NCBI GenBank assembly: GCA_964645795.1
Contig: CAZYCL010000001.1
Location: 223,194-287,193 of the forward strand
Length of the DNA stretch: 64,000 nucleotides
Source: an uncultured Planctomycetales bacterium
GTDB taxonomy: Bacteria > Omnitrophota > Gorgyraeia > Gygaellales > Profunditerraquicolaceae
Direction of reading: 5' to 3'
Shown here: positions 26,231 through 58,040 of the stretch, one piece after another
Layout of the letters: each line of letters starts with the position of its first letter
Position numbering within the stretch: the stretch's first letter is position 1
Translations under genes and position numbers: made by a program
The notes under the pieces: model-generated
What the model saw: the letters and a program-made list of their open reading frames with translations, nothing else
The model's database searches: none
What the model was told of the DNA's origin: nothing

Positions 26231-26236
26231 CTCTTA

Positions 26237-37942: not shown

Positions 37943-39117
37943 AATAAACCGTTGATCCTGTCTGCGAGCTTGCCGGCAAGCGCCGGCCAGCTGTAACGCT
38001 CTCTTATCAGGTCCATGGCCCTGGCGCTGATCCTTTGACGCAAGGCTGCATCTTCCAGCAGCATAAGCACTTTTTGCGCGAAAACCTGCGGGTCATCCGC
38101 AACCAGGACATTTTCACCGTCCTGCGCGGATATGCCGCCCAGACCTATGCTCGTGGTCACCACCGGCAGCCCCAAAGACATGGACTGTATCACCTTATTT
38201 TGAATACCTACGGCAATACGCATGGGTGCTACGCAGACACATGCGTCCCTGACGTAAGGACGAATATCTTCGACATCGCTATATACCCTGACCCCGTTTT
38301 TGCCGGCAAGCCGCTTTAGCTTTTGCGGCATATTGGCCCCGACTATAACGAGCCTGGCATTGCCTGATTGGCTACGCACCAGCGGATATATCTTATCATA
38401 AAAGAAACTGATCGCGTCGATATTATGGAAAGCGCGCAGATTGGCGAAAAACACGATCTTGCCGGCTTCAACTATCCTGTCTTCGGGGCTTATGTCTTCC
38501 GGATCCGCTCCGTTCTCCACTACCTCAAGCCCCCCTGCCCCCAGCTCACCCTCTAGGTACGCCTTATCCACGGACGAAGATACGATGTTGAGATCGAAGT
38601 TCTTTATGACAGACGGCTCATAGGCACCAAGCCTGCGCGACTCGATACGCTCAACGATCTTAAAAGGGCCTTTTCTGTAACGCGAAGATATCCCGTACCT
38701 TAATGTAAGCGCATCCGAGAGGTCAAGCACTTTTGCAATGCGGGCTCCTTGCGCGTAAGGCGCCAGGCGCAGAAGATGGCAGAAGATAAGATCGTAGCCT
38801 CCCGAAGCCAGCTGGCGCCTTACCGCTTCAAGCATAAAAGGAGAGTGATAATAACTAAGCTCCAATGGCCTTGAGCCAAACAGGCCGACGGCGCACTGCA
38901 GGTAGGATCTGGGCTTGGGCAGCCCTATCATATCCAGTTCTACCTCAGGCAGCCTGTAATCTAAAGCCTGCCGCCTCTCTATTTGCGAATCGTAGAAACT
39001 GAGGACCTTGATACGGAACTGGCCGCAAAGATGCTTGATGAAATTATAAGGACGCAGCCTTTCGCCTCCCCGGGGAGGGAAAGGCGGCCTGGTTGTCAAA
39101 AAAAGCATCTTTTTCAC
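37930..39117 (-). CDS. glycosyltransferase family 4 (GT-B)
   Basis: 395 aa with a C-terminal Glycos_transf_1-like region (E-x7-E). Confidence 0.6.
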   Translation of the reverse strand: MKKMLFLTTRPPFPPRGGERLRPYNFIKHLCGQFRIKVLSFYDSQIERRQALDYRLPEVELDMIGLPKPRSYLQCAVGLFGSRPLELSYYHSPFMLEAVRRQLASGGYDLIFCHLLRLAPYAQGARIAKVLDLSDALTLRYGISSRYRKGPFKIVERIESRRLGAYEPSVIKNFDLNIVSSSVDKAYLEGELGAGGLEVVENGADPEDISPEDRIVEAGKIVFFANLRAFHNIDAISFFYDKIYPLVRSQSGNARLVIVGANMPQKLKRLAGKNGVRVYSDVEDIRPYVRDACVCVAPMRIAVGIQNKVIQSMSLGLPVVTTSIGLGGISAQDGENVLVADDPQVFAQKVLMLLEDAALRQRISARAMDLIRERYSWPALAGKLADRINGLLCKR

Positions 39118-40553
39118 AGGAACTTCCTTCTTAAAGCGGTAAGGCTGCGATAAAGCCTGACCGGAGAAGCTAATAAACCGATATTTTTAAATAAGACCCT
39201 GGGCCTCAGGTAAAACGAAAGATTGGCGTATCTGACTAAGCGGTTAAGGTTTTTGGCGCTGAGCCCCGGATAGCTTATCACGGCCTTTGACTGCACGCTT
39301 TCGGCGACATAATCTTCGCCGATAAAAAGATTGCCGTTCTTGGCGATCTTATAAAGCTCTGTCCCGGGAAAAGGGGTAGCCAAAGAGAACATTACCATAT
39401 CCACGTCCAGCTTTTTGGCCGTGCGGATATCGCGGATTATCCTGCTTCTATCCTGGAGCCTGGATAACCCGAGCACGAGATTTATCTTGACCAATATCCC
39501 GTGCTTCTTGAGGATCTTCACGGCCTCATAGATCTTGGCCACATCAAGTCCTTTGTGCGCGTCATCAAGCACTTCCTGGTCAAAAGACTCTACCCCCATA
39601 TCCAGGTATACGCAGCCTGCCGCTTTAAGCGCTGCGGCTACTTCGTCGGTGATCCGGTCGGCCCTGGCCAGACATCCCCAGCGCATACCCATTTGTTTTA
39701 ACCCTTCGCAGATAGCCAGGGAGCGTTCCTCGGACCAAAGAAACTGGTCATCGATGATGCTTACGGACTTATACCCCTGGGCCCTGAGCTCTTCGAACTC
39801 GAGTATCACGTTCCGGGCCGAACGCAGGCGCACCGCGGGCTTCTGGTCCTGATGATACCTCCTGTGCTCCAGCTCTCTGGCGAAGTTGTAAGAATTCGGC
39901 ACGCAAAAGACGCACTGATAAGAACAGTTGCGCGAGGTCTGCACGGCGGTAAACGGCAGGAGCTCAAGTTTAGGGTTGTAATAAAGATCGCGGTTAAGCA
40001 GCCTGCGGCAGGGAAACGGCAGGGAATCCAGCTCCTCAAGAAGCGGCCTGGGGGGATTATCTGCCTGCGAGCCATCTTGCCTAAGAAAAGAGACCCCTTC
40101 CACTCCCTCTGCCCCTTTGCCGGCGCTTAAAGAGCGGACCAGCTCCAGCAAGGTAACCTCCGTCTCTCCTCTTACCGCGAAAGTATCCCGGTCTTTGAGG
40201 AAAAAATTGGCAAAATACGTGGGAGCGGGCCCGCAGAAGACGACAGCTCGCCTCTTTGAGCTCTCTCTAATGAGCCGATGAAAGACCATATCGGAATCCA
40301 TGGAGAGGTTAATGGAATGCAACACATAAACGAGGCTGTCATCCGAGGCCAGGAATCGCCTGATCTTGGCAGCGTTCCAGGCTTCGGCGGACATATCCAG
40401 GTAGGCAACGCCATGCCCGTTCTTGTCCAGAACTGATGCCGCTGAAAGAGAAAAGATATTCGGGATGGGATAAAGGCTATAGGTGCAGCCGAATACCCTC
40501 TCGAACCCTTTTCTGCCTTTTAAGTTCGGCGGGTCTATGAAAGTTACTTTCAA
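39114..40553 (-). CDS. B12-binding domain radical SAM enzyme (class B)
   Basis: N-terminal cobalamin-binding-like domain plus a CxxxCxxC motif (CSYQCVFC); 479 aa. Confidence 0.65.
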   Translation of the reverse strand: MKVTFIDPPNLKGRKGFERVFGCTYSLYPIPNIFSLSAASVLDKNGHGVAYLDMSAEAWNAAKIRRFLASDDSLVYVLHSINLSMDSDMVFHRLIRESSKRRAVVFCGPAPTYFANFFLKDRDTFAVRGETEVTLLELVRSLSAGKGAEGVEGVSFLRQDGSQADNPPRPLLEELDSLPFPCRRLLNRDLYYNPKLELLPFTAVQTSRNCSYQCVFCVPNSYNFARELEHRRYHQDQKPAVRLRSARNVILEFEELRAQGYKSVSIIDDQFLWSEERSLAICEGLKQMGMRWGCLARADRITDEVAAALKAAGCVYLDMGVESFDQEVLDDAHKGLDVAKIYEAVKILKKHGILVKINLVLGLSRLQDRSRIIRDIRTAKKLDVDMVMFSLATPFPGTELYKIAKNGNLFIGEDYVAESVQSKAVISYPGLSAKNLNRLVRYANLSFYLRPRVLFKNIGLLASPVRLYRSLTALRRKFL

Positions 40554-40554
40554 T

Positions 40555-42309
40555 TCAATCGCCCTCTTTTACGTAACTATTGCAATAGAGGTAACAGGGA
40601 AAGCCCTTGTGTTTATCGAAGCTTTTTACCGGGGCTACCCACTTGAAGACCGCAGAATCGATGCTGATGAGCGCCTCGAGGCTGCCGCCGATAAACATCT
40701 CTACGGCCTGGTGCATGCTTATGCTAAGGGCATCCGAAGGCTGCGGCTCATACAGAAAAAGGTCGTATCGAGCGGCCGGCGTTTTTTGCGCAAGGCCATA
40801 ATACCACAAAAGCAGCTTCCATTGAAACACCCTTTGCTTCTCCGGAGCGCCGAACACGCTTTCGATAAAGGGGTTGCCTTTATTTATCCCCAGATCCAGA
40901 TTGTTCAGGGAAAGGTAGACATCTACGCGCTCTTCGACCCTGGTGCGCATATCGCCATAGGCCTCTAGCCACCTGTTCAAAGTGCGGCTGTTGGGCTTAA
41001 AGTAGATACTAAGGTTAGCCGGCACGGCAAGGCGGATATCGGGCTTAATATTCTTTTGAACCCAGGCTATGCAGTCACTCAGGTTATTATCACTGTGGGT
41101 GGCCCTGAAATAATTCACAAAGGCCGTCAAGTTAATAGCGGCTATCACGGCGGCCGTTGCCACGCATACGCATTTTTTGTAACGGCCTAGCTTCCCGTAA
41201 GCGAACAGTTCGACGAACAGGGCCACGTATATGCCGACAAAAATAAAAAGCGGCATGGCGTAGCGCGGGTAGATACGGTGAGAAAAACCTAACGGCAGGA
41301 TAAGGACGATCAGGCCGGCCAGCAGTATCATGGCCCTCCTTTTGCCGAGGCGCAAGAATGAAGCGACTGCGCCGAAAATAGCCAGGACCAGCCATCCCTT
41401 CCAGGAAAGGAAAAGACCCGCGTCCCTGAACAGATACTTCCAATAATAAGGTTCGGCTTGCGCGGTCTGGCTTGTATAATACATCGCCAGGTTGCCTAAG
41501 ACATTCTTCCACAGGGCCAGGGGGTTGGTCCAAATATAAGGGATGAGAACAAAGACCGTCAAAGCCAGTCCGGAAAAAAACCTGCCCATGCTGCGCATGA
41601 GCGGCCTGGCCGCCATAGGCCGGCAAAGAAAGGCTATGGCGAACAGCTCCCAGGGCAGGAATATAAGGTAAGGGAATTTAGCCGCTACCGACAGCCCATA
41701 GAAGATCCCGGCCCAGAAAAGGCGGGCCAAGCCCCCCTCCCCTTCCAAGCTTAAGAGTAAAAGCAGGGAGGCGGCAAAAAAAGTAAGAGCCAGAGAATCG
41801 GAGATCAGGCTGGCTCCTTCCTGTATCAGGAAGGGAGAGGTCGCGAATATCACCGAGGAGATGACGGCCGCGTAAGGCAACCTGCGCCTTATGAAAAACA
41901 GGAAAAATAGCAACGCCGGCATAGATGATATAAAAGCCACCGCGCACCTGCCTGCAGTCAGCGCCGGATGCGGCTCAAGGATAAGGCCAGCGATATATTC
42001 GGATACCCCGCAGATAAAAACAGAGGGGTCCTGGATGAAAGCCGGGATCTGGCCGATATTTTTTAAAACAAAGTTCAGGAAAAAAGCGAGGATCAGCGGC
42101 AGGCCAAGTATCCCCGTCGACCAAAGAGTGGTCCCGGCGGAGACGTTGCCGGCGAACAACCCAAGGACCGAATTTAGAACGTTTAACTCCACCGGTTCGT
42201 ATACTAACAGCCGGGGAGGCGCCAACGCAAGCATCATGCGCGGCAGGAGAGAAAACAGAAAGACCGCCGCGCAAACCAAGAAGTATTTATGTTTGTCCGT
42301 GTTCATCAT
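40555..42309 (-). CDS. GT-C fold membrane glycosyltransferase (ArnT/PMT, GT39/GT83-like)
   Basis: About 11 TM helices in the first ~400 aa plus a C-terminal soluble domain. The start is placed at MMNTDKHKYF, which gives an ATGA overlap with the upstream stop. Confidence 0.4.
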   Translation of the reverse strand: MMNTDKHKYFLVCAAVFLFSLLPRMMLALAPPRLLVYEPVELNVLNSVLGLFAGNVSAGTTLWSTGILGLPLILAFFLNFVLKNIGQIPAFIQDPSVFICGVSEYIAGLILEPHPALTAGRCAVAFISSMPALLFFLFFIRRRLPYAAVISSVIFATSPFLIQEGASLISDSLALTFFAASLLLLLSLEGEGGLARLFWAGIFYGLSVAAKFPYLIFLPWELFAIAFLCRPMAARPLMRSMGRFFSGLALTVFVLIPYIWTNPLALWKNVLGNLAMYYTSQTAQAEPYYWKYLFRDAGLFLSWKGWLVLAIFGAVASFLRLGKRRAMILLAGLIVLILPLGFSHRIYPRYAMPLFIFVGIYVALFVELFAYGKLGRYKKCVCVATAAVIAAINLTAFVNYFRATHSDNNLSDCIAWVQKNIKPDIRLAVPANLSIYFKPNSRTLNRWLEAYGDMRTRVEERVDVYLSLNNLDLGINKGNPFIESVFGAPEKQRVFQWKLLLWYYGLAQKTPAARYDLFLYEPQPSDALSISMHQAVEMFIGGSLEALISIDSAVFKWVAPVKSFDKHKGFPCYLYCNSYVKEGD

Positions 42310-44051
42310 TTGGATTTCAGCACCAGGCTCCTGCCCAGGACCAGGAGGTCCATCCGGGTCCTTAAGAAACAACCCAGGGCCTCACGGGGGCTGCAGACTA
42401 TCGGCTCGTTCTCGTTGAAAGAGGTATTCAGCAAAACCGGTATACCGGTGATATTTTCGAACTCGCTAAGGAGCTTCCAGAAAAGAGGATTGGTATCTTT
42501 TGAGACGGTCTGGAGCCTTCCCGTGCCGTCCACATGGGTGACGGCCGCGATGCTGGCCCTTTTTTCTTTTTTTATCGGATAGACCTTTATCATGAAGGGA
42601 TCGGGATAGCTGCACTCAAAGTAATCTGCGGCCCTCTCCTCTTTTATCGCCGGGGCAAAAGGCCTGAACCACTCCCTTCTCTTTATCCTTTCGTTCAGGA
42701 TATCTTTCATCTCTTTCCTGCGCGGATCCACCAGTATGCTCCTGTTGCCCAGGGCCCTGGCGCCCCACTCCATCCTGCCCTGGAACCATCCGGCTATTTT
42801 GCCTTCAGATATGAGCAAGGCGACAGTCCTGCATAAACTGCCCTCATCAAGTTCTCTGACCGTATAAGCGCCTGCCTTTAACTGCCCCTCACTGCTTATC
42901 AACTCCCTGATATCGGAGTCGCTAAAAGACGGCCCCCAGTAGGCATGCCGCATCACAAAGCTTCTCTTGGCACCTAAAAGCTGGTTATACAGATAAAACG
43001 CCGCTCCGAGCGACCCTCCCGCATCGCCTGCCGCCGGCTGGATAAACACTTCTTTGAAAGGCGTCCTTTCGAATATCTTGCCGTTAGCCAGGCTGTTCAG
43101 GGCGCAGCCTCCGGCAAGGCATAGATCATCGAGCTTTGAAAGCCTGTATAAACGATTAAGGATCGCGAAAAACGCTTCTTCGTAGACGCTTTGCAGGCTG
43201 GCTGCCAGATCGCAGTGGAATTCAGTCAGCTCTTCACTGCTGCCCCTGGCAGGCCCGAACTCCTTCAGGAGGGCCGGCGAGTAGAGCCTTCCGAGGGCAG
43301 GCTCGGTATTATCCCAGGACATGGATGAGGAGCTGCTGCTTAAACTGAAAAACTTCTGGTTAAGCCGAAAACCGCGTTCACCTATCGATAATACGCGCTT
43401 CATCTTATCGGCAAACCTCGGCTTTCCGTAAGCCGCCAGCCCCATTACCTTATACTCGTCGCCAAACTTCTCAAAACCCAGAAACTGGGTAAAGGCGGTA
43501 TAAAATATCCCCAGGGAATGCGGGTAGTTTATCTGGAAAACAGGACGCAGCCTGTTGACCTCCCCTATCGCCCCCATGCAGCTGGAGAAGTCACCGAAGC
43601 CGTCCAGCGAAAGGACAGCCGCCCTGTTAAACTGCGAAACAAAGAATGCGCTGGCCAGGTGCGCGCGGTGATGCTCGACATTGAACAGGCGCGGATGCTT
43701 CTTGGGAGGCTGGACCGCCAGGGCCTTACGCAGGCTGCTCTCGATATTGCCGATCTTTGCGATATTCAAAAACCTTGCGCCTATGAAACGTGGCGAAGGA
43801 AGCCGGCCAAGGGCATATATCAGTTTCTTATGGATGTTGGCAACCGGATTGCGGTTACAGGCAATAAAATCAAGATCAGTAAAAGACGCCCCCGCCTCTT
43901 TCAGGCAGTAGGCTGTTGCCCCGACCGGCAGGCCCGACCAGTGCTTTATCCTCCTAAACCTCTCCTCTTCCGCGGCGGCGACGAGCTGGCCATCCCTGAT
44001 AATGCAGGCAGAAGAGTCCGGATGATAGGCGTTAAGGCCCAGTATCAGCAT
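42306..44051 (-). CDS. carbamoyltransferase of the NodU/CmcH/TobZ family
   Basis: 581 aa. The N-terminal Kae1/YgjD-like domain reads ILGLNAYHPDSSACIIRDGQLVAAAEEERFRRIKH, and a C-terminal YrdC-like domain follows. Confidence 0.75.
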   Translation of the reverse strand: MLILGLNAYHPDSSACIIRDGQLVAAAEEERFRRIKHWSGLPVGATAYCLKEAGASFTDLDFIACNRNPVANIHKKLIYALGRLPSPRFIGARFLNIAKIGNIESSLRKALAVQPPKKHPRLFNVEHHRAHLASAFFVSQFNRAAVLSLDGFGDFSSCMGAIGEVNRLRPVFQINYPHSLGIFYTAFTQFLGFEKFGDEYKVMGLAAYGKPRFADKMKRVLSIGERGFRLNQKFFSLSSSSSSMSWDNTEPALGRLYSPALLKEFGPARGSSEELTEFHCDLAASLQSVYEEAFFAILNRLYRLSKLDDLCLAGGCALNSLANGKIFERTPFKEVFIQPAAGDAGGSLGAAFYLYNQLLGAKRSFVMRHAYWGPSFSDSDIRELISSEGQLKAGAYTVRELDEGSLCRTVALLISEGKIAGWFQGRMEWGARALGNRSILVDPRRKEMKDILNERIKRREWFRPFAPAIKEERAADYFECSYPDPFMIKVYPIKKEKRASIAAVTHVDGTGRLQTVSKDTNPLFWKLLSEFENITGIPVLLNTSFNENEPIVCSPREALGCFLRTRMDLLVLGRSLVLKSK

Positions 44052-44883
44052 CTTTTCCTTTCATCATCAGCCTGAGTATCCTGTAATCAATAAGCATCCT
44101 GAACCAGAAGCCGTGCCAGAAGTGGAACTCCCAGCCGCGCATGCCGTCCAGGAACCCAAGCCTAATAATAAAGCGGTAAATGAAGTAAGCGAGCACCCGC
44201 AAAAAAATGGGCAGCCTGTAATAGATATTGTAGCGCCTCCAGCCCCTCTTTTGTATCGGCGTGCCTTTAAAGCTGACATTTGCCGTCTTTCGGCTGGAGA
44301 GGGCCTCCCTGGCTTCAAGCTGGGCCCACCTGCTATGCCTTTCTTTCCAGGATCCAAGATCAGGATTTATAATATTGATGATATCCCCTTTTAGTATCCC
44401 TGTCTTGCCGTTCACCGCAAAATTCTGGTCATACAGCCTTTTTTCAACTGCCCCCTTGTCTTTCTTGAATATGCGTAAATGATATACCGGATAGTGATCG
44501 CCGAACCGTATCCACTTGCCCTTAAAGAGCGTCCGTCTGCTGGCCATGAACCCGTCCGCCTCTATTGTTTGCGAAAAAATTCCCCGCAACTCATCCGCAA
44601 GCTCCCTGCTTATCCTCTCATCGGCATCGAGGTGAAGCACCCAGAGGTTTTTAGTCTCCAGGTTATTCTGCGCCCAGTCCCTTTGTTGGGCGTAATCAAC
44701 AAACGGATGCTGGCAGACGTTGGCCCCGAGTGCGCGTGCGATCCCCACCGTATTGTCACTGCTAAAAGAATCCACCACAAATACCTCATCGCATAATCCC
44801 AAGACGCTGGCAATGCAATCGGCTATATTTGATTCTTCGTTCAAGGTAAGTATGATGGCTGAAACCGGTATGCTTGCGCTCAT
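44032..44883 (-). CDS. glycosyltransferase family 2
   Basis: N-terminal VSAIILTLNEE...DSFSSD GT-A signature (DXD); 283 aa. Confidence 0.65.
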   Translation of the reverse strand: MSASIPVSAIILTLNEESNIADCIASVLGLCDEVFVVDSFSSDNTVGIARALGANVCQHPFVDYAQQRDWAQNNLETKNLWVLHLDADERISRELADELRGIFSQTIEADGFMASRRTLFKGKWIRFGDHYPVYHLRIFKKDKGAVEKRLYDQNFAVNGKTGILKGDIINIINPDLGSWKERHSRWAQLEAREALSSRKTANVSFKGTPIQKRGWRRYNIYYRLPIFLRVLAYFIYRFIIRLGFLDGMRGWEFHFWHGFWFRMLIDYRILRLMMKGKDADTGP

Positions 44884-46049
44884 TGGGCCCCTGAGATCTC
44901 TTTATACGCAGCCAGCAGTTTCTGGGCTGCCTGGCCCCAGCCAAACTTCTCTCTGGCCAGAGCCCTCGCCCTCTGCCCCATGGCCTTAGCCGACGCCTCA
45001 TCCTTCAAGAGCTTGTTCAGGGCGTCCTCAAGCCGGGCCGCCTCCAACGGCACCACTACGCCACAGCCACAATCGCTGATATCTGCGGATATCCCCACGC
45101 GCTCGCTTACCACTACGGGAAGCCCCGCGGCCATCGCCTCGACCACAGCCAAGGCAAAGTTCTCGGTATAGGATGGCAGCACAAAGATGTCGCTGTCCCT
45201 TAAAAGACAGAGCTTATCCCTGCCGCTAAGCATTCCGGTAAATAGCGATTTATGTGAAACGTTGCGGCTTTTCAGCCAGCCCTTGACCTTACCGGCGTAA
45301 CCTTCGTCATCGGGGCCGGCAATGACCAGATACAGGTCGTCTCTTGAGGCTGCCAGGCCCGCGAACGCCTCTACCAATAAATCCAGCCCTTTCTTAAAAT
45401 TGATGCGGCCGAAAAAAAGGATGATCTTCTTTTCTTTAAGCTCTGGGTGCTTCTGACGAAACTCCCCGTAATCCGGCAGCTGGCTGAACTCCTCAAGATC
45501 GACGCCCAAACCTATTATCAGCGGCCTGGATTTTATATTAAGGCCGCAAGCCAAGCGCATCTCGTCTGTGCTCGTATAGTGGACGGCGCTGGCGTTGTTC
45601 AAGTTATTCAGCTCGAAGGCGCGCATATAAATACTTTTTATAAACCCGCGGTGTTTAAGCGCGTATGGGTCAAGATGTCCCAGCGGCCTGATAATATGGG
45701 GCTTATGAAAACGGCGGCAGTAAAAAGAAGCGGATAGCGTCGAGAACTGGAACAACGAATGTATATGGACCACATCATATGCGGGGATCTGGCTGCGCAG
45801 TGCCTGCAGGAGCCCCGGGGAAAACTTGTAGTGTTTTAGAAACCGCACCGGATAATAACAGATTTCAAAACCTTTGAGCGGCTGCGGTTGGGCCAAAGGC
45901 ACGTTCATCCTGGCGCCTACATCTGCGTCGGTGGTAATGATCCTCACCTCCTGGCCCAGAAGGCTCAGGGCAGAGCTCATGCCCAGCACGGCGCTGCTTG
46001 GCCCGCCGAAACCCGCGGCAATGCTGGGGATGACCTGGAGTATCTTCAT
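44880..46049 (-). CDS. glycosyltransferase family 4
   Basis: 389 aa with the GT-B fold and a C-terminal Glycos_transf_1 region. Confidence 0.65.
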   Translation of the reverse strand: MKILQVIPSIAAGFGGPSSAVLGMSSALSLLGQEVRIITTDADVGARMNVPLAQPQPLKGFEICYYPVRFLKHYKFSPGLLQALRSQIPAYDVVHIHSLFQFSTLSASFYCRRFHKPHIIRPLGHLDPYALKHRGFIKSIYMRAFELNNLNNASAVHYTSTDEMRLACGLNIKSRPLIIGLGVDLEEFSQLPDYGEFRQKHPELKEKKIILFFGRINFKKGLDLLVEAFAGLAASRDDLYLVIAGPDDEGYAGKVKGWLKSRNVSHKSLFTGMLSGRDKLCLLRDSDIFVLPSYTENFALAVVEAMAAGLPVVVSERVGISADISDCGCGVVVPLEAARLEDALNKLLKDEASAKAMGQRARALAREKFGWGQAAQKLLAAYKEISGAQ

Positions 46050-47887
46050 AGGTTATTTAATTTTACCCATTTATTAAGCACGTAGAGCGCCCAGGGCCGC
46101 TGCCACGAAAGGCCGCCGTCCAGGAACCTCCTCCAAACGGCGATCTGCCCCTCGCTTGCCACGAACTCTTTAATGGCCTCTGACGGGCAAGAAAGCTCTT
46201 CTTCTATTTCCTTGCTAATATCCTCTTTCATCCAGCGCCCGACCGGCAGGACAAACCCCATCTTACGGCGAAGGTATATCTTCCGGGGAAGCTTCTGAGG
46301 CAGGCTGTCCAAAAGCAGCGGTTTGGGGCGCCTGCCGCTTAATTTTAGCCTGCCCGGAACGGACAGGACAAACTGAGCCAGAACGTGATCAAGATAGGGT
46401 ACGCGCACTTCCAGGGAATGGGCCATGCTCATAAAATCGGTATCCCTGAGCAAAACATCCCTCATGTAGTTGGTAAGCTCCAGATAAGATACGCGGTTGA
46501 CTGGATCCAGATGAGAAAGCTGCTGCAAAGATTCTGCCGTAGCCGGGATGCTCTTTTTAAGAAGCGTATATTTTTGCCCCTCGGTAAAAAGCCTGCGCAC
46601 CCAGAAGTAGGGGCTCTCTCTGCTGCCAGAGCGCAGCATCTCTATGGCCTTATCCCTGCCCGGCCTGCCGATACATAAACCTGCGGCGACCTCGGCGATG
46701 CCGCTCTTGAGAAAACCGGGCATTAACCGCATCAACGCAGTTAACCTTTCCAGGCCCGGGACATGCCTGAAGCTTTTGTATCCACAAAACAGCTCGTCTG
46801 CCCCCAGCCCGGACAAAAGCACGGTCAGCCCGGCTTCTTTAGCCGCGCGCGAAACGAAGAACGAGTTGATGCCGTCAAAGGTCGGCTGGTCCATGGAGCT
46901 CAAGGCCGCAGGAAGGCTGGAAAGAAAATCGTCTTCGGAAAGCCTGACTTCGCGGTGCTGGGTCTTGAACTGGCTGGAAATCAAACGGCTAAAGCCGCTT
47001 TCATCGAGATCCTTCTCATCAAAGACCAAAGAAACCGTCCTTAGCTTGCTGCCGGAGACATCCGACATGATGCTGGTAAGGCCAGAGGAATCAATCCCCC
47101 CGCTCAGGAAAAGCCCTAAAGGCACATCGCTGGCCGAATGCAGGCACACGCTTTCTTTTAGGAGCCCGGCCGTGGTTTCCGCCGCCTCATCATATGAACC
47201 GGTAAAGGCCGGCGAAGCAGAAAGGATATCCCAGTATCTGCTAATATTTAACTGGCCGTTTTCCAGCGTAGCGTAATGACCGGGCAGGAACGCACAGACT
47301 CCTTCGATGACGGTAAAAGGGTCCCTGAACGCGCCGTAATCAAGATAAGAAGACAGGCCTTGCCCTGATATGATACGGCTGACCAGCCCGCTTGACAGGA
47401 TAGCCTTTACCTGAGAAGCGAAGATAAAAACATCGCCTTTAAAATAATAATACAACGGCTTGATACCAAACCTGTCCCTGGCAAGGAAAAGCGCGCCGGT
47501 CAGCTTGTCAAATATGCAGAAGGCGAACATCCCCCTGAGCTTACCCAGGCAATCTTTGCCCCACTCCTCATAAGCATGGAGGATCACCTCGCTGTCACTA
47601 TGACTGGAGAATCTGTGTCCGAGCCTCTCCAGCTGCGGCCTAAGCTGCCTGAAATTATATATCTCGCCGTTAGCCACCAGGAGCTTGGTAGAGTCTTCGT
47701 TAGCCAAAGGTTGATCGGCCTGCGGGGAAAGATCGATCACCTTAAGGCGGCGGTGCCCGATATGCGCCCGTTCATGCGAATAAATACCCTGGTTATCCGG
47801 CCCGCGGCTGGCCAGCGTCTCGAGCATCTTAAGGAGGGCTTGCCTGCCTTGATCCCCGCCGCAGATAACCCCTGCTATCCCGCACAT
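46046..47887 (-). CDS. asnB: asparagine synthase (glutamine-hydrolysing) family amidotransferase
   Basis: N-terminal MCGIAG Ntn-glutaminase nucleophile and a PP-loop SGGIDSS; 613 aa. Confidence 0.75.
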   Translation of the reverse strand: MCGIAGVICGGDQGRQALLKMLETLASRGPDNQGIYSHERAHIGHRRLKVIDLSPQADQPLANEDSTKLLVANGEIYNFRQLRPQLERLGHRFSSHSDSEVILHAYEEWGKDCLGKLRGMFAFCIFDKLTGALFLARDRFGIKPLYYYFKGDVFIFASQVKAILSSGLVSRIISGQGLSSYLDYGAFRDPFTVIEGVCAFLPGHYATLENGQLNISRYWDILSASPAFTGSYDEAAETTAGLLKESVCLHSASDVPLGLFLSGGIDSSGLTSIMSDVSGSKLRTVSLVFDEKDLDESGFSRLISSQFKTQHREVRLSEDDFLSSLPAALSSMDQPTFDGINSFFVSRAAKEAGLTVLLSGLGADELFCGYKSFRHVPGLERLTALMRLMPGFLKSGIAEVAAGLCIGRPGRDKAIEMLRSGSRESPYFWVRRLFTEGQKYTLLKKSIPATAESLQQLSHLDPVNRVSYLELTNYMRDVLLRDTDFMSMAHSLEVRVPYLDHVLAQFVLSVPGRLKLSGRRPKPLLLDSLPQKLPRKIYLRRKMGFVLPVGRWMKEDISKEIEEELSCPSEAIKEFVASEGQIAVWRRFLDGGLSWQRPWALYVLNKWVKLNNL

Positions 47888-47889
47888 GA

Positions 47890-49302
47890 TTACTGGCCTG
47901 CCTGTTCTTGGATACGTCTGGAAGACGCGCTCATGAAGCTCATGACCATGTAAAACAGGATCATGTATTGGATGACATTGCCGAATACGAGCGAAAAATC
48001 GGACTCAACGTTAAGCAGGTTATAGAAAACCGCCGCACCTATAAGGAAAGTCCCGTCTTTACATCCTGGGAAGTTTATCATTGCGTATAGGCCGCGTATG
48101 ATCAACCCGAAGATAAACATCCCAACGACCACCCCCCATGGCCCGAAGTTGACGAACATCTCAAGGGTTATGGGAAGATTGTAGGAAGTAGACATGTCGC
48201 TGGGCAGAAGAAAACAATAGCGGTGGCCGAACTCCGTACCCACGTTCTTGGTGGGTTTGCCTGGAAACAGCGCCCTGGGGAAAAACGACAAGGGGAGCGT
48301 GCGGTAAGTATGCCCGTTCCAGTAAGGAATGGTGCGGGGAGTAAGGTCAACTACCCTAACGAAAGTCACCAGGTGATTGGAGCGGGAGACAAGCTTCTCG
48401 TAGGCTTTGGCGTCAAATTCGCTATCGGAGCCCGGAAGCTTTACCATTAACTCCAGGTATAACACTATCTTTCTGATAGTCGATTCCGCGCTATACCTGC
48501 CCCCGTACCAGGCCAGACTCCTGTACTCATCCCGCACGCCCCATACGCGGAATATAAACAAGGAGACGATTATCAAGGCCACCCACGGGATCTTCTGGCG
48601 GCAGTAGAAATAAATGAAGAACAAGGTGCAGGACTCAAGCAACACAGGCATGACCGATCCGGTAGCGATGGTATAGAGAAGCCTTGAAGGAATAAAGAGC
48701 ACCCACAATAACAGCTTAAAGAAACCGCTGAGTTTTCCCTGCAGGCCCAGGAGAAAGAATATGATAATCGCTAAAAGCGATAGCTGCACGATGAAACCGT
48801 GGATGCTGCCCCCTACCAGGGACAGCGTATAGTTGGAGAAAAAGTAAGTTATGGTGATGGATACGAAATAGAGTATAAGCCCGAGGCTTGAAGATTTTGA
48901 TGGGTCCAGCGAAATATCCAGATGCGGCAGCGCGGAATCAAGGGGCTTGCCGAGCTGCGAATAGAACGCCATCAGGAACGCAACAAAACCTACGAGCACC
49001 ATTAACAGTGTCGTCGTGGAGGTGGCCGGGCCGACAAAATCAAACCAGAACTGGACGTCTTTACTGCTGAATATATTTCCGAAGTGCATGAAATAGATGA
49101 TACCGTAGAGGGGCACATACGGTATGGTCTTTTCCGAACGCGCAAAATAAATCACGGTCGGGATGCAGGTTACCAGATACACCAGTGAGGCCATAAGCAC
49201 CTGAACCGGCAGAAAGCCTTTATTGTGCCAACCGTGAAATACGTAAAACCATATTGCAGCTACCGCCAGTAAAACCTTGAACGCTGTGCCTCTTTTATCC
49301 AT
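47890..49302 (-). CDS. multi-pass membrane protein, O-antigen ligase/polymerase-like (Wzy_C superfamily?)
   Basis: About 10 TM helices with a large loop before the final TMs. The start is set at MDKRGTAF, because the upstream 44 aa of the ATG-ORF overlap the preceding gene. Confidence 0.35.
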   Translation of the reverse strand: MDKRGTAFKVLLAVAAIWFYVFHGWHNKGFLPVQVLMASLVYLVTCIPTVIYFARSEKTIPYVPLYGIIYFMHFGNIFSSKDVQFWFDFVGPATSTTTLLMVLVGFVAFLMAFYSQLGKPLDSALPHLDISLDPSKSSSLGLILYFVSITITYFFSNYTLSLVGGSIHGFIVQLSLLAIIIFFLLGLQGKLSGFFKLLLWVLFIPSRLLYTIATGSVMPVLLESCTLFFIYFYCRQKIPWVALIIVSLFIFRVWGVRDEYRSLAWYGGRYSAESTIRKIVLYLELMVKLPGSDSEFDAKAYEKLVSRSNHLVTFVRVVDLTPRTIPYWNGHTYRTLPLSFFPRALFPGKPTKNVGTEFGHRYCFLLPSDMSTSYNLPITLEMFVNFGPWGVVVGMFIFGLIIRGLYAMINFPGCKDGTFLIGAAVFYNLLNVESDFSLVFGNVIQYMILFYMVMSFMSASSRRIQEQAGQ

Positions 49303-49322
49303 TTTTGGCGCTTCTTTCCGCT

Positions 49323-50528
49323 TCAGTCTGCATTCGATATAGCACGATAGTGACTGAGCATGTATTCTACGTAATGGTCCCAGGTAAAACTGCTGATCAC
49401 CCTCTCCCTTGCCCTCTCTCCCATAGCCTGGCATGCAGAGCGGTTCTCGTATAAGTATATGAGCTTTTCTTTCAAAACCTGCTCATCCCTGATCGGTATC
49501 ACAAAACCCTCCATTCCATCGCGTATTATATCAGAACCTCCGGTATTTGTCGTGCAGACAAGCGGCAAACCGCAGCACATCGCCTGCAGCTGCACAACGG
49601 CCATCCCTTCATCTATGGAGGGCATGACAAAAACCGAACCCTGAGAGTAATAGCGGTGGAGCAAGCCTTGAGGTTGATGCGGTATCCAGCGAAAGCTGTC
49701 GCGATACTCTGCCAATATGCGCCTGGTGTCCGGGTTTAGGCTGCCGATAAGCCAAAGCTCTGAGTTGGGCAGCCGCGCCTGGCTGAATGCCTTCAACAAA
49801 TAAGGTATGCCCTTCCTAAGGCTGATATTGCCGGCGCAGATCACCCTGAAAACGTCATCATTCTTGGGCAGCCGGGGGAACTCTTCGGGATCGACCCCGC
49901 GAAAGCTTTTAATAACCTTGGAGGGGTCTACCCCCGATTCCTTGAATGTATCCAGGGCATAAGAGCTGGGTACTTCTATATAATCGGCCAATTCGTATTC
50001 CCGTATCTCTTTTTCCACCAGCCGAGGGTGCGCCGCCTGAAACTCCGCCTTCCATCTGCCGGCCTCCTCTTGCCTTATCCTCTGCTGCCACACCATGTGG
50101 GAGCTGCCGCGCTCAAGAATGCTCTTTATCCCCAGCTGCCTGGCCTTTTTTAAAGTATGCAGGGCGCAGCCGGACCAAGAGATGCAAAGGTCGCTTTTTT
50201 TGAGTTTTGCTGCGGCTATCCGGTCGAAGATCTCCCCAAGCACGAAATCCGTAGCCAGGATCCGGTTTAACGAATACGGCGCCATATTGCACAAACGAAC
50301 CAGGCACTCAATTAAAACCTCTGAATCTACGCATTTATGCGCAATGGCATAACCTTTCATGGCGAACTTCGGATAGGTAGTGATGATGCGCACGAAGACG
50401 CCTTTCCTGATAAGCCTATCTGCCAGGTAAAAAACGTGGAACCTTCCGGCAACCGTTATGGTAATCTGCATAATTGGAATAAGTTCCCGTAGTTCCTGCA
50501 GTATTTTATGAATACATAAACCTTCCAA
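49323..50528 (-). CDS. glycosyltransferase family 4
   Basis: 401 aa with the GT-B fold and a C-terminal GT1-type motif (EGMAVVQLQAMCCGLPLV). The N-terminus may start at an internal Met. Confidence 0.6.
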   Translation of the reverse strand: MEGLCIHKILQELRELIPIMQITITVAGRFHVFYLADRLIRKGVFVRIITTYPKFAMKGYAIAHKCVDSEVLIECLVRLCNMAPYSLNRILATDFVLGEIFDRIAAAKLKKSDLCISWSGCALHTLKKARQLGIKSILERGSSHMVWQQRIRQEEAGRWKAEFQAAHPRLVEKEIREYELADYIEVPSSYALDTFKESGVDPSKVIKSFRGVDPEEFPRLPKNDDVFRVICAGNISLRKGIPYLLKAFSQARLPNSELWLIGSLNPDTRRILAEYRDSFRWIPHQPQGLLHRYYSQGSVFVMPSIDEGMAVVQLQAMCCGLPLVCTTNTGGSDIIRDGMEGFVIPIRDEQVLKEKLIYLYENRSACQAMGERARERVISSFTWDHYVEYMLSHYRAISNAD

Positions 50529-52114
50529 TAGCGATCGAAGTCGATAAAGAATTCGAGGGGCGAGATCTTATTCTTTGCAAGCCTGAAATGGCCGTTCAGC
50601 ACTTCACGCTCCTTATATATATATTTTATCATTTCTTTGAAAAATGGGAACATCAGGTATCTAAAAGGGAAGCTGAAGCCGCGTTTGCGCCGATGGACAA
50701 AGCTTGGCGGAAATCCTGCCGCAATAAGGATATTCTTTAATGCCCACTTTGCCGCCGGAGCATTCTTCCAGTAAACCAAAGGCAGGCTGCGCATAAAACA
50801 AAGCAGCTCCCAATCCAGATACGGACAGCGCGCCTCCATCTGGTTTTCGCTGATGGCCTTGTCGACCTTGATGAAACCGTGCCCGACCAGATCCTCGCCA
50901 ACCGCGCGCCGGGCGTACTCGCTAAAATACGAGGGCAGAGGAGGACCGCAGACCGCCTCTGTGGCGGCTGAACCATCAGGGCATGCCAAGAGCCAGTCTT
51001 TTAGCGAAGCATAACCCAGAAAAGCCTCATCGCCTCCGTCTCCGGTAAAAAGCACCCTCCCGAATTCCCCGGCCTTAAGGCTTAGCGCAGAAAGAAAATA
51101 ATAAGAACAAACCGCCAGCGGCTGGTCCGCGCTCAAGATAAACCCATCGATATGCGAACGCAGGAAATCTCTTTCCAGCCTTACGAAATGCACCTGTTTT
51201 TTAAGCAGCTGCGAAGCCTTGTCCACGCAAGGCTGGTCATGCATAAACCAGAGCGGCTGACGAAGAGAAACCAGCTCTGTCGAGGCGTTGTGGGCGAGCA
51301 TCCGGCAGGCCAGGACAGTCGAGTCTATGCCCCCCGAGAATAACAGCACCGGGCTGTCGACCTTTTGCATCCTTTTGGCGATCGCAGCATCCAGGAGCCT
51401 CTCGATCGTCTTCTGGATGAGCGGCACATCATTGAAATCATGCTCCCGGTAATCAACGCAAGCTTTTTTGAGCTTTCTGCGAAAAACTTCCTTGCCTCCC
51501 AGGTCTACTTCGTAGATCTCGCCCGGCAAGACCGGTACTACCTCCTCTAGCAGCGTCGCGTTCCAGGGCAGGTGGCCGTACTTAAAATAATAATCTATCT
51601 GCCTGTTATCAAGGACAAGCTTACCCGGATAATTATCGGCTATCGCCGTGAGCTCTGAAGAAAATATCAGGGTCTCTGCTTTTTTATAAAGCAAAAAAAG
51701 CGGTTTTTTGCCGATGTTATCCCTGTGGATGAAAACCTTCCTGGCTTTCTTGTCAAAAAGCGCAAATGCAAAAGCGCCGTCCAGTAAACCGAATCCATCG
51801 CTACCGTAGAGCGAATAAAGATGGAGTATCGCTTCGCAGTCGCTGGTCCCGGAATAAACGTAACCACCCATCTTTCTTATTTCCCGGTGATTGTATACCT
51901 CCCCGTTGCAGATGAGAACGCAATCATTGTTTTCGATCGGCTGCATGGATGAGCCTTGCCGGTCTATCACCGCCAGCCGCGCATGCACGAACAAGGCCTC
52001 GGCGCTGCGCCAGCAACTTTGCCCGTCAGGGCCGCGGTTTTTCAGATAGCGCGCCGAGCAGGACTCGGGCAAACTTTTGCCGGAAAGACTGATCATCCCC
52101 AGTAATCCGCACAT
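50456..52114 (-). CDS. asparagine synthase-like amidotransferase (second paralog)
   Basis: N-terminal MCGLLG nucleophile and PP-loop SGGIDST; 552 aa. Confidence 0.7.
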   Translation of the reverse strand: MCGLLGMISLSGKSLPESCSARYLKNRGPDGQSCWRSAEALFVHARLAVIDRQGSSMQPIENNDCVLICNGEVYNHREIRKMGGYVYSGTSDCEAILHLYSLYGSDGFGLLDGAFAFALFDKKARKVFIHRDNIGKKPLFLLYKKAETLIFSSELTAIADNYPGKLVLDNRQIDYYFKYGHLPWNATLLEEVVPVLPGEIYEVDLGGKEVFRRKLKKACVDYREHDFNDVPLIQKTIERLLDAAIAKRMQKVDSPVLLFSGGIDSTVLACRMLAHNASTELVSLRQPLWFMHDQPCVDKASQLLKKQVHFVRLERDFLRSHIDGFILSADQPLAVCSYYFLSALSLKAGEFGRVLFTGDGGDEAFLGYASLKDWLLACPDGSAATEAVCGPPLPSYFSEYARRAVGEDLVGHGFIKVDKAISENQMEARCPYLDWELLCFMRSLPLVYWKNAPAAKWALKNILIAAGFPPSFVHRRKRGFSFPFRYLMFPFFKEMIKYIYKEREVLNGHFRLAKNKISPLEFFIDFDRYWKVYVFIKYCRNYGNLFQLCRLP

Positions 52115-52121
52115 TATTTAA

Positions 52122-52997
52122 CTACCCCTTTTCTTTCTTAAAACCCACCACTACCAGATCGCTATGCTGGCCTTTAGGGCAGCCGATAAGATCGAAAAAT
52201 CCATTGTGGATCTCGAACTCAAACCCTTCTGGGCCGAGATTGCGCTTAAAGAACTCCGCGGTAAAGCCCAAGGGATGCATCGCCCCCATCCATTTGAATC
52301 CCGGGGCCATCTTTTCCGGGGCCATATCCGGAACCTCTAAAAACAAAACGCCGCCCGGCTTTAACAGGCTACGAAAAGATTTGAAGATGGCGGATATGTC
52401 TGAAAGGTGCTCCAGGACATGAATGCAAAATATGGCGTCAAAGCTCTCATTGTCGCCGCAAAGCCCTTTAAGATCGCTCTCTATCCTAAGCCCCAGGACA
52501 TTTCTGCCGAACTCCCTGCGCTTATCGGAGATCTCCACGCCTACGGCCTCCACCCCCTGCCGGCTAAGCTGCTTTAGAAAGTAACCCCAGGAACAGCCGA
52601 ATTCAAGCGCCCGTTTTATTGCGTGCCTGTCGATAAAATACCTAAACACGCCGTAATAATCCTTTTCCGTATTGCGAAAATCATCCTGGATGAGCTGCTT
52701 TAGCCTTTTATTATCCGGGATATTTGTAACCAGGTCGTTCTCGGTATACAAAAGATCGTAAGCGCGGGGGAACTTAAAGATGGGGTTGGTCCAGAGGAGC
52801 GCGCAGTTCCTGCACCGGCAAATATCGACGACAGCGAACTTCTTAAAGATTAGATCATGGCTGGCACTGCCGCAATAAGGGCAAAAACCGTTCTTCTTGA
52901 AGAAAACCGCCTCGAAGAAATACACGGCCTTGATGCAAATCAGTTTAATCGGGCGAAGAGACTTCAATTTAGCTCCTCGAGGTAGTCGCGCCGGCAA
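52122..52997 (-). CDS. class I SAM-dependent methyltransferase with an N-terminal zinc-ribbon
   Basis: A CPYCG...CRCRNC zinc ribbon is followed by a Rossmann-like methyltransferase motif (LEFGCSWGYF). Confidence 0.5.
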   Translation of the reverse strand: MPARLPRGAKLKSLRPIKLICIKAVYFFEAVFFKKNGFCPYCGSASHDLIFKKFAVVDICRCRNCALLWTNPIFKFPRAYDLLYTENDLVTNIPDNKRLKQLIQDDFRNTEKDYYGVFRYFIDRHAIKRALEFGCSWGYFLKQLSRQGVEAVGVEISDKRREFGRNVLGLRIESDLKGLCGDNESFDAIFCIHVLEHLSDISAIFKSFRSLLKPGGVLFLEVPDMAPEKMAPGFKWMGAMHPLGFTAEFFKRNLGPEGFEFEIHNGFFDLIGCPKGQHSDLVVVGFKKEKG

Positions 52998-54433
52998 AAC
53001 CAGTAGCTTAAGGAACCGACAATCACCGCCGTCAAATCGAACAAAAGGTGCCTGAACTTAGGATGGGGGCTCAATATAAGGCTTGCCCATCTGGCAAACA
53101 GTATCTTCCTGAAGTAACGATAACGCCAAAAATGCCTTGCCCTGTTTGTAAACGATGAATGGGAGTATCTGTTTCTAAAGAAATCTATCGCCCGCCTTGC
53201 CGAACTCCGGCTCAAATCCGTGGCTACGGGTTTAAACCTCGAGTAGTCGTAATCCTCGGCGCAGCGGTAGAAGCCTGAGGCCTCGATTTCGCGGCAGTAA
53301 AGGTTTGAAAGGTGGGTCTTGGGAAGCAGGGTAGTATAAGAATAATTCATGAAATGAGGCTGGATCTTCCGGATAAGGGCCAGGGACATCTTGAGGTCGC
53401 CTTCGCTTTCCGTAGGCGAGCCGACCATAATGTTGGCCTGTACAGGCAAACCGATCTGGTGGCACAACCTGTAAGCTTCCATGACCTGATCGTCGGATAC
53501 GTTTTTATCAAGCACGCCGTTCCTTATCCTCTGGCAACCGGTCTCAGGAGTGAGCACTAAACACGAACATCCCGCATCGCGCATCCTGATAAGCATCTGG
53601 CGGTCGATATTATTGAGCCGGCCATTGGCATACCATGAAATATCAAGCCGCTCCTGCCTGATAAGGTCGCAAAACCTTCCCGCCCATTCAATATCCGTAA
53701 GAAAAGTGTCGTCGTTTATCCACAAACCATTCACTCCGTATGCATTTTTAAGCTCGGCGATCTCGGCTACGACATTTTCAGGAGAGCGCTTGCGCACCCC
53801 TTTGCCGAAGATCTGTTCGGGCGTAGGCTGACAAAAGGAACACCGATAGGGGCAGCCCCTTCCGGTTATAAGCAGCATGCAGGGATTTTTTAAAGGATAC
53901 CCTGCCCTGCCGTAGATGACGCTTTTAGGCACAAGCCTCCTGTTGACAAACGGCAGCGAATCGAGGTCTCGTATATACTCCCTCGGCCCCGTCACTACCG
54001 GGGTTGCCCCTTTCAGGTAGGCCAGCCCTTTCACGGCATCCGGGAACTGACCCTGCCCTATTTTATCCAAAAGCTCCACTATCGTTACTTCGGCCTCTCC
54101 GATGACGCAGAAATCTACGCCCATCTCTTTCAGGGCCTGCTCGGGGAAGACGCTGGCATGCGGTCCTCCGGCAATCAACACCTTGCCGGGTAAAAATGAT
54201 CTTATGGACCTGGATATGGCTTTGGCTTTCTCAAAAAGCGGCGTTACCACGCTTATGCCTATGACATCGGCAGAGAAGCTGCGGATCTGTTTTAGTATCC
54301 GGCCCAAATAATCAGCCTTCTCGGCTCCGATCAGGCGGACAGAATGACCGGCCTTTTCCAAGACCGTGCCGACGTACATAAGGCCCAGGGGCTCGTTATC
54401 CAGGCTTTCCAGATAGATTAACAGTATGCGCAT
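52964..54433 (-). CDS. B12-binding domain radical SAM enzyme (class B), second copy
   Basis: N-terminal cobalamin-binding Rossmann-like domain (ILLIYLESL...VIGIS...IAGGPHAS), then a CxxxCxxC motif (CPYRCSFC); 489 aa. Confidence 0.7.
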   Translation of the reverse strand: MRILLIYLESLDNEPLGLMYVGTVLEKAGHSVRLIGAEKADYLGRILKQIRSFSADVIGISVVTPLFEKAKAISRSIRSFLPGKVLIAGGPHASVFPEQALKEMGVDFCVIGEAEVTIVELLDKIGQGQFPDAVKGLAYLKGATPVVTGPREYIRDLDSLPFVNRRLVPKSVIYGRAGYPLKNPCMLLITGRGCPYRCSFCQPTPEQIFGKGVRKRSPENVVAEIAELKNAYGVNGLWINDDTFLTDIEWAGRFCDLIRQERLDISWYANGRLNNIDRQMLIRMRDAGCSCLVLTPETGCQRIRNGVLDKNVSDDQVMEAYRLCHQIGLPVQANIMVGSPTESEGDLKMSLALIRKIQPHFMNYSYTTLLPKTHLSNLYCREIEASGFYRCAEDYDYSRFKPVATDLSRSSARRAIDFFRNRYSHSSFTNRARHFWRYRYFRKILFARWASLILSPHPKFRHLLFDLTAVIVGSLSYWFCRRDYLEELN

Positions 54434-54454
54434 ATTGCGATAAAATAATTCCGG

Positions 54455-54524: not shown

Positions 54525-54556
54525 TGTTGATTATCGGCCCTGAAATGCCTTCTTGA

Positions 54557-58031: not shown

Positions 58032-58040
58032 AATAAAGGG

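Follow-up and report, generated by a model that had tools for sequence, protein, structure and literature searches.

The question raised by the locus described here is what two radical S-adenosylmethionine (rSAM) enzymes are doing among genes for a cell-surface glycan. The locus lies within 64,000 nucleotides of DNA (the window) from an uncultured Planctomycetales bacterium, placed by GTDB in the Omnitrophota (GenBank assembly GCA_964645795.1, contig CAZYCL010000001.1, positions 223,194 to 287,193 of the forward strand), and the two rSAM genes are referred to as RS1 and RS2. In a preliminary description both were called cobalamin-dependent enzymes of class B, whose presence in a polysaccharide locus would point to C-methylated or otherwise radical-modified sugars. 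The explanation preferred here is that RS2 C-methylates a sugar, that RS1 makes a change other than methylation to the primer sugar and that both tailor a lipid-linked glycan; taken as a whole it is tentative and falls a little short of being probable. The genes on which the argument turns are as follows.

39114 to 40553, minus strand: RS1, AprD4/HpnJ-like rSAM enzyme whose B12-type N-terminal domain is degenerate
52964 to 54433, minus strand: RS2, rSAM enzyme with a canonical B12-binding domain
52122 to 52967, minus strand: class I SAM methyltransferase, partner of RS2 (Methyltransf_23, 64.6 bits; 281 amino acids (aa) in the gene call, the mechanical open reading frame (ORF) running to 52997)
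42306 to 44051, minus strand: NodU/CmcH-type O-carbamoyltransferase (Carbam_trans_N, 194 bits; Carbam_trans_C, 235 bits)
37930 to 39117, minus strand: glycosyltransferase of family 4 (GT4), stp1-like, overlapping the RS1 stop codon by 4 nucleotides (nt) (Glyco_trans_1_4, 96.8 bits; TIGR03087, 245 bits)
37298 to 37942, minus strand: priming polyprenyl-phosphate phosphoglycosyltransferase (PGT) of the small Bac_transf type, last gene of the array (Bac_transf, 196 bits; TIGR03025, 229.7 bits)

The positions, CxxxCxxC motifs and rSAM assignments first given for the two enzymes were all confirmed. RS1 (479 aa) and RS2 (489 aa) are each identical to a protein among public called genes (P0001 and P0121, respectively). 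They possess the cluster motifs CSYQCVFC and CPYRCSFC and match Radical_SAM (PF04055) in Pfam with 67.1 bits (E 2.8e-18) and 69.8 bits; the cysteines of the motif are invariant in the alignments of both families. The AlphaFold models (predicted local distance difference test, pLDDT, 92.9 for RS1 and 94.3 for RS2) show an N-terminal alpha/beta domain, consisting in RS1 of five strands and five helices, followed by a partial rSAM barrel, which is the overall fold of class I B12-type rSAM structures (OxsB, TsrM, TokK, QCMT). No transmembrane anchor was detected by hydropathy in either protein. That neither belongs to the MiaB or RimO proteins was also upheld: no match to UPF0004, TRAM or the family hidden Markov models of Pfam and NCBIfam was found, and in fold both match AprD4 and most B12-type rSAM structures better than these two families, the Foldseek template modelling (TM) score to MiaB being 0.55-0.61. 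RS1 and RS2 share 26% identity and, on sequence comparison, are not duplicates; they form two separate uncharacterised families specific to glycan loci.

The two proteins differ in their N-terminal domains, both of which had been described as B12-binding-like. RS2 matches B12-binding (PF02310) with 81.9 bits (E 4e-23), well above the Pfam gathering score of 32.1, while RS1 reaches 29.8 bits (E 5.6e-7), just under it; the cautious wording is accurate for RS1. The label of cobalamin dependence, originally applied to both enzymes, is justified by sequence for RS2 only and is not established for RS1.

RS2 is most likely a cobalamin-dependent radical C-methyltransferase acting on a sugar, as judged from its sequence relationships. 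Among PDB sequences it is matched best by 9CCB, the structure of MgmA/QCMT, which C-methylates glutamine in a B12-dependent reaction (PMC11796369, PMC12931638); its fold matches, with TM scores of 0.64-0.73, are TsrM, AprD4, CysS, MgmA, TokK and OxsB. In a profile alignment, GGPH and GEAE of RS2 line up with GGPH and GEGE of TokK, and both motifs also occur in a MoeK5-like protein of Streptomyces clavuligerus discussed below; TokK W76 and W215 align to prolines in RS2, a comparison uninformative on cobalamin-facing residues. The solved class I B12-dependent rSAM methylases MgmA/QCMT, TokK, CysS and TsrM share the fold of RS2 at 15-20% identity, but possess C-terminal extra domains that RS2 lacks, and their substrates (a protein, a carbapenem, a thioester-bound intermediate and tryptophan, respectively) are not sugars. 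GenK and GenD1 act alongside class I N-methyltransferases in one pathway. They perform cobalamin-dependent rSAM C-methylation of gentamicin sugar carbons (PMC5819394) and are likened to the window enzymes by description, although theirs is a secondary-metabolite pathway with soluble substrates, unlike the window locus.

Orthologs of RS2 are few, comprising 28 clusters at 47-59% identity before a drop to about 33%; a homolog was identified in a Scalinduaceae genome. All eight further contexts examined are glycan loci, and a GT4-like gene of about 394 aa precedes the RS2 ortholog in most of them (L001, L085, L093, L094 and L095). A class I methyltransferase gene directly follows RS2 in the window, where it overlaps the RS2 stop codon by 4 nt, and in L087, L088, L093 and L095. 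In two relatives, P0122 and P0145, the RS2 ortholog is fused to such a methyltransferase, the fusion protein encoded by L001 (10001-12331) having 776 aa, and the window methyltransferase is 50% identical to the C-terminal part of P0122. Because of this adjacency, the overlap and the fusions in relatives, we conclude that RS2 and the methyltransferase are likely to work as a pair. The methyltransferase also possesses an N-terminal CxxC...CxCxxC motif, zinc-ribbon-like, that is kept in the fused homolog.

For RS1, the best fold match is AprD4 (PDB 6FD2), the 1,2-diol dehydratase of the apramycin pathway, which does not bind cobalamin; AprD4 and ArsL demonstrate that the B12-type rSAM architecture can occur without the cofactor (PMC12931638). 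Identity between RS1 and AprD4 is about 21-22%, the sequence match spans the rSAM core only and not the N-terminal domain, and neither RS1 (92.3 bits) nor RS2 (54.4 bits) approaches the cut-off of 500 for the AprD4 family NF033070. AprD4 acts on a soluble pseudodisaccharide, as opposed to the lipid-linked sugar proposed for RS1. The best curated family for RS1 is HpnJ (TIGR03471; 27.9% identity), with 175.6 bits against a cut-off of 577.6. Among 24 sampled members of the RS1 family, curated profiles of HpnJ (24/24), BchE (19/24) and AprD4 (19/24) matched, all with E <= 1e-25. Alignment of RS1 with HpnJ showed a common insert after strand 1 and the lack of GGPH in both, GPAP taking its position in RS1. 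The insert carries R19, G22, C23 and Y28, which together with L83, D88, G108, P111 and R128-E130 make up the invariant residues of the N-terminal Rossmann domain in the RS1 family. When this domain of RS1 alone was compared by sequence with the PDB, nothing significant was found.

HpnJ and BchE are non-methylases (PMC9204698). The reaction proposed for HpnJ is ring contraction of bacteriohopanetetrol glucosamine, though this reaction and the use of cobalamin are themselves unproven (PMC13459092, PMC9204698). Like the substrate proposed for RS1, that of HpnJ is a lipid-attached sugar, and hpnJ adjoins a gene for a family 2 glycosyltransferase (GT2), hpnI, just as most RS1-family genes are followed by a GT2 gene; hpnI-hpnJ-hpnK were found together in L092. 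The window contains no hopanoid genes. The GT2 partner of the RS1 family was considered as an HpnI ortholog and rejected, as the version in anammox bacteria scored only 46 bits (weak) and the others are generic GT2 enzymes. C-methylation is not the default expectation for RS1, since its B12-binding score is below threshold and its relatives AprD4, HpnJ and BchE are non-methylating. On these sequence relationships, an AprD4/HpnJ-type reaction without methyl transfer (diol dehydration, ring contraction or epimerisation) appears about evenly poised between true and false, and a MoeK5-like C-methylation is a possible, close second.

The RS1 family has many members: when one genome was scanned for each species, confirmed relatives were identified in at least 580 species, and the taxonomy and neighbourhood counts given here relate to the best 80 of these at least 580 genome relatives (loci L003-L082). 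They include Omnitrophota, anammox Planctomycetota (Brocadia, Kuenenia, Jettenia), WOR-3, Spirochaetota, gut Bacteroidales, Clostridia, Saccharibacteria and Methanoperedens. Neighbourhood clustering placed a GT2 gene of about 275 aa directly downstream (3-70 nt) of the RS1-family gene in 64 of 82 loci, this pair often lying amid housekeeping genes such as purM, purF and thiE. A gene for a glycosyltransferase, phosphoglycosyltransferase or carbamoyltransferase lies within 300 nt of the RS1-family gene in 69 of 81 loci. The closest RS1 orthologs (56-59% identity), from Omnitrophota, keep the order seen in the window, namely carbamoyltransferase-RS1-GT4-PGT: orthologs of the GT4 gene lie directly downstream in L003, L004, L005 and L062, and those of the carbamoyltransferase directly upstream in L002, L003, L005 and L085 and one gene further in L062. 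In L002 (5991-8018), an RS1-like domain is fused to a Bac_transf PGT in a 675-aa protein, beside a carbamoyltransferase gene in otherwise housekeeping surroundings. A 620-aa protein following this fusion was considered as a homolog of the GT-C-like protein of the window and discarded, no similarity being found at E 1e-5. RS1 and RS2 homologs occur together in at least two other loci, L085 (the same as L086, a second contig) and the 51,920-base contig of L001.

The suggestion that such enzymes would be unusual for an envelope glycan accordingly fits the characterised literature only. Enzymes of the B12-type rSAM group tailor sugars in gentamicin, apramycin, moenomycin and the hopanoid head group, and no characterised member from an O-antigen, capsule or exopolysaccharide pathway was found in the literature searched; in uncultured lineages, the association of the RS1 family with glycan genes is common and not exceptional. 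Radical tailoring of sugars is a reasonable part of the earlier proposal, because every family context examined is a glycan locus; the part that is weakened is C-methylation as the presumed reaction of RS1.

As to substrates, order of steps, cobalamin use and chemistry, the route that we infer from domains, motifs, folds, gene order, fusions and family distributions is the following. Both enzymes would modify sugars of a glycan that is lipid-linked and of exopolysaccharide or capsule-like type. RS1 would act on the first sugar while this is still on undecaprenyl diphosphate, alongside the adjacent carbamoyltransferase. In RS2, the [4Fe-4S] cluster would cleave SAM to give a 5'-deoxyadenosyl radical, which would remove a hydrogen atom from a carbon of the sugar; the radical so formed on the substrate would receive its methyl group from methylcobalamin, and a second SAM would regenerate methylcobalamin. 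The methyltransferase encoded downstream of RS2 would then methylate the same residue on oxygen or nitrogen, this succession being the simplest interpretation of the pair.

A pathway of comparable logic is that of moenomycin. A protein search of plasmids led to S. clavuligerus pCLA1, which has the gene order NAD-dependent epimerase, AsnB, degenerate AsnB, B12-type rSAM and carbamoyltransferase (L091, 5386-16326), which we take to be the moenomycin order moeE5-moeF5-(moeGT1)-moeH5-moeK5-moeM5. The rSAM protein of this set (B12-binding, 57 bits; cluster region unannotated) is presumably the MoeK5 equivalent, from its place in the gene order and not its annotation. Reportedly, in work of Ostash et al. 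from 2007 and 2009, a lipid-linked galacturonic acid is amidated, carbamoylated and C-methylated in this pathway, with roles for MoeF5, MoeH5 and MoeM5. MoeK5 is listed as the cobalamin-dependent C-methylase of moenomycin (PMC9204698). A matching set is present in the window, with two AsnB-type genes (46046-47887 and the divergent 50456-52114), the carbamoyltransferase (42306-44051) and a B12-type rSAM enzyme. The MoeK5-like protein of pCLA1 is 28% identical to RS2 (132 bits) and 25.8% identical to RS1 (105 bits), and neither RS1 nor RS2 is a MoeK5 ortholog, other class B families being at least as close to them. Whereas moenomycin is secreted as an antibiotic and built on a phosphoglycerate lipid, the product of the window locus would be an envelope polymer exported by Wzm/Wzt; the likeness is best regarded as one of pathway logic, not orthology.

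Several observations weigh against the preferred explanation, beginning with its non-methylating RS1. Most characterised class B enzymes are methylases, and in a stringent similarity network (PMC9204698) HpnJ falls together with two of them, Fom3 and MoeK5, so that RS1 could resemble HpnJ and still methylate. In a profile of the RS1 family the N-terminal domain does align with the domains for cobalamin in OxsB, CysS and TokK, and a PF02310 match is recorded for 96 of 120 listed RS1 homologs. By our reading of the model, the invariant N-terminal residues appear to follow strands 1, 3, 4 and 5, where cobalamin would bind. The network, profile and Pfam results also favour an alternative that we regard as unlikely but as the strongest of the rivals, in which both enzymes are cobalamin-dependent C-methyltransferases, the glycan has two C-methyl-branched sugars and RS1 is a MoeK5 analogue acting on a carbamoylated uronamide. 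The class B two-domain architecture is indeed common to RS1 and RS2, but in RS1 the B12-binding domain is under the Pfam threshold and without GGPH; the two AsnB-type genes and the carbamoyltransferase do lie beside rSAM genes as in the moenomycin-type cluster, but RS1 is less similar to the MoeK5-like protein than to HpnJ. Its best fold match being the cobalamin-free AprD4 and its top curated families all being non-methylases also argue against methylation by both enzymes.

Further points against RS2 as a cobalamin-dependent methylase and RS1 as an AprD4/HpnJ-type enzyme lie in the surrounding DNA. A check for cobalamin synthesis or uptake genes, proposed in the preliminary description, found none in the window: cob, cbi and btu genes are lacking among its roughly 60 annotated ORFs. 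No cobalamin or SAM riboswitch was detected in the window at Rfam gathering thresholds, including the 123-nt gap before RS2. AprD4 works with the reductase AprD3, and near RS1 no AprD3-type ketoreductase was found, there being no short-chain dehydrogenase or reductase gene between 37298 and 63837. Nucleotide-sugar genes that would reveal the sugars involved are likewise absent from the window. Beyond the window end the genome was followed for 9.8 kb on a contig of different sample origin (L089), which is 99.99% identical to window positions 51627-64000. A CbiQ-type energy-coupling factor (ECF) component and an ABC ATPase are encoded there (L089, 1-918), about 9-9.8 kb past the window end; this pair was not counted as a cobalamin supply, as CbiQ is a generic ECF component.

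The highest NCBIfam scores of RS2, for BchE (143.8 bits), HpnJ (139.9 bits) and BzaD (139.6 bits), count against a methylase too, all three being non-methylase families. They would suit an improbable alternative in which RS2 catalyses a cobalamin-dependent rearrangement or oxidation of the OxsB or BchE type and the class I methyltransferase gives the only methyl group, OxsB being also among the fold matches of RS2. None of these scores reaches a cut-off, however, each lying far below it, and many methylase families score RS2 in a similar range, barely apart from the non-methylases. The GGPH and GEGE-type motifs and their alignment, which resemble TokK and the MoeK5-like protein, and the methylase MgmA as best PDB sequence match favour C-methylation by RS2. 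That one or both enzymes act instead on a peptide or on a lipid (the polyprenyl carrier or a different one), or are passengers of the locus, is very improbable, for although HpnJ, a ladderane-associated rSAM enzyme and others in the group act on lipids (PMC9204698, PMC13459092) and the RS1-GT2 pair lies amid housekeeping genes in anammox bacteria and Bacteroidales, this is opposed by the 4-nt overlaps with glycosyltransferase and methyltransferase neighbours, the gene order kept across relatives, the RS1::PGT fusion in one of them, the adjacent glycan genes in most RS1-family loci and HpnJ itself, whose remodelling of a lipid is directed at the sugar head group.

A bolder form of the preferred explanation, which we regard as doubtful, is that RS1 and RS2 represent two previously unrecognised radical-enzyme families remodelling envelope sugars bound to the carrier lipid. 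RS1 would convert the primer to a deoxy-keto, ring-contracted or carbocyclic sugar, RS2 with its fused or adjacent methyltransferase would yield a C- and O-methylated residue, and such sugars would be widespread and overlooked. If C-methylation, deoxygenation or contraction does take place on the carrier, standard composition analysis would miss or misread some residues in the surface glycans of gut Bacteroidales and many uncultivated anaerobes. The RS1::PGT and RS2::methyltransferase fusions offer concrete substrate hypotheses. In anammox bacteria, the S-layer O-glycan of Kuenenia is heavily methylated, as inferred from mass differences only, and the exact positions are not known (PMC5088730). 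The occurrence of the RS1 family in a related Kuenenia species and of the RS2 homolog in a Scalinduaceae genome is a lead toward this methylation, not evidence on it.

The array around RS1 and RS2 consists of 21 genes, all on the minus strand, which span window positions 37298-63837 and mostly overlap or sit a few bases apart. Pfam and NCBIfam searches identified ten glycosyltransferase genes (GT2, GT4 and one two-module enzyme), the priming PGT, the carbamoyltransferase, two AsnB-type genes, two class I methyltransferases, a polysaccharide deacetylase, Wzm, Wzt and the two rSAM genes. The genes not listed above are given here in the order of their coordinates.

40555 to 42372, minus strand: polytopic membrane protein with at least 10 hydrophobic segments, weakly GT-C-like (PMT_2, 19.5 bits, below threshold; 584 aa in the public gene call)
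44032 to 44883, minus strand: GT2 glycosyltransferase (Pfam)
44880 to 46049, minus strand: GT4 glycosyltransferase (Pfam)
46046 to 47887, minus strand: AsnB-type glutamine amidotransferase (Asn_synthase, 253 bits; TIGR03108, 413 bits)
47890 to 49434, minus strand: polytopic membrane protein without Pfam match, weakly Wzy-like (NF046084, E 1.4e-7; at least 8 hydrophobic segments)
49323 to 50528, minus strand: GT4 glycosyltransferase (Pfam)
50456 to 52114, minus strand: second, more divergent AsnB-like amidotransferase (Asn_synthase, 92 bits; GATase_7, 102 bits)
54434 to 54556: intergenic gap of 123 nt directly upstream of RS2, the sole sizeable one in the array
54557 to 55738, minus strand: GT4-like glycosyltransferase (Pfam)
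55735 to 57099, minus strand: GT4 glycosyltransferase (Pfam)
57096 to 58031, minus strand: GT2 glycosyltransferase (Pfam, NCBIfam)
58041 to 59288, minus strand: Wzt ABC-transporter ATPase with C-terminal Wzt_C carbohydrate-binding domain (ABC_tran, 66 bits; Wzt_C, 73 bits)
59305 to 60141, minus strand: Wzm ABC-2 permease (ABC2_membrane, 67 bits)
60171 to 60881, minus strand: Methyltransf_24 class I methyltransferase (Pfam)
60878 to 61630, minus strand: polysaccharide deacetylase (Polysacc_deac_1, 87 bits)
61627 to 63837, minus strand: two-module glycosyltransferase of 736 aa (Glyco_trans_1_2, 122 bits; Glycos_transf_1, 117 bits)
63838 to 64000, minus strand: 367-aa gene of which the window holds the 3' end, with faint FAD-oxidoreductase-type Pfam matches only

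The AsnB-type protein encoded at 46046-47887 may convert a uronic acid to a uronamide, and a similar-sized counterpart of the weakly Wzy-like protein (47890-49434) is located at the same position in L001, L085, L087, L093 and L095. The original designation as a Wzm/Wzt-type locus is correct in that Wzm and a Wzt with its Wzt_C domain are part of the array, and incomplete in that Poly_export, Wzz/GNVR-type and Wzy_C genes follow just beyond the window. These were found on L089, where the upstream continuation comprises TPR, Wzy_C, Wzz/GNVR-type (weak P-loop matches), Poly_export, BBP2_2 beta-barrel and PilZ genes. The locus is a co-directional exopolysaccharide or capsule-like one of about 36 kb in an Omnitrophota genome. 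It shows some resemblance to exopolysaccharide loci of PEP-CTERM type, with NCBIfam matches to stp1 (245 bits) and the XrtA-system amidotransferase (413 bits), each below its cut-off. In Escherichia coli O8/O9a, a chain-terminating methylation made by WbdD is read by the C-terminal domain of Wzt. In the known systems such caps are the work of class I methyltransferases or kinases and not of rSAM enzymes. A methylated terminal residue could also act as an export signal here, since Wzt carries Wzt_C and the array holds three methylating candidates.

The gap before RS2 contains two tandem copies of a 14-nt repeat, GTCGATGGTCTATA (54455-54482), with a third copy in inverted orientation at 54509-54524, and is a possible operator or internal promoter. 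The corresponding flanking genes of the relative L001 are separated by 3 nt. A terminator-like site (37201-37188) lies just 3' of the PGT gene. Adjoining the locus on the opposite strand is a candidate regulator:

35669 to 37036, plus strand: HAMP-GGDEF protein, candidate cyclic di-GMP (c-di-GMP) regulator

Because this gene adjoins the locus and a PilZ gene is present in the same genome (L089, 2252-2644, about 7 kb past the window end), the polysaccharide locus is probably under c-di-GMP control.

Further rSAM genes were observed in related loci. L087, L088, L094 and L095 each contain two to four, mostly of the B12 type, and L001 (1-659), the closest relative, encodes an additional B12-type rSAM enzyme where this genome has the gene with faint FAD-oxidoreductase-type matches, which indicates that rSAM genes are gained and lost between related loci. 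A third B12-type rSAM enzyme at the window end, prompted by L001, was considered and dropped, as the cut gene encodes the 367-aa protein listed above.

The remaining ORFs of the window are housekeeping genes, among them LptF/G, MlaDEF, ClpC and tRNA ligases. LysS shares 68-72% identity with many proteins named as Candidatus Omnitrophica or Omnitrophota, which places the bacterium in the Omnitrophota. One 454-aa ORF (1-1365, minus strand) joins a Maf domain to a Peptidase_M48 domain. At 22718-26755 (minus strand), a UVR-motif protein (McsA-like), an ATP:guanido phosphotransferase (McsB-like) and ClpC are encoded together; McsA/McsB/ClpC form a protein-arginine-kinase quality-control module that is best known from Firmicutes and is found here in an Omnitrophota genome.

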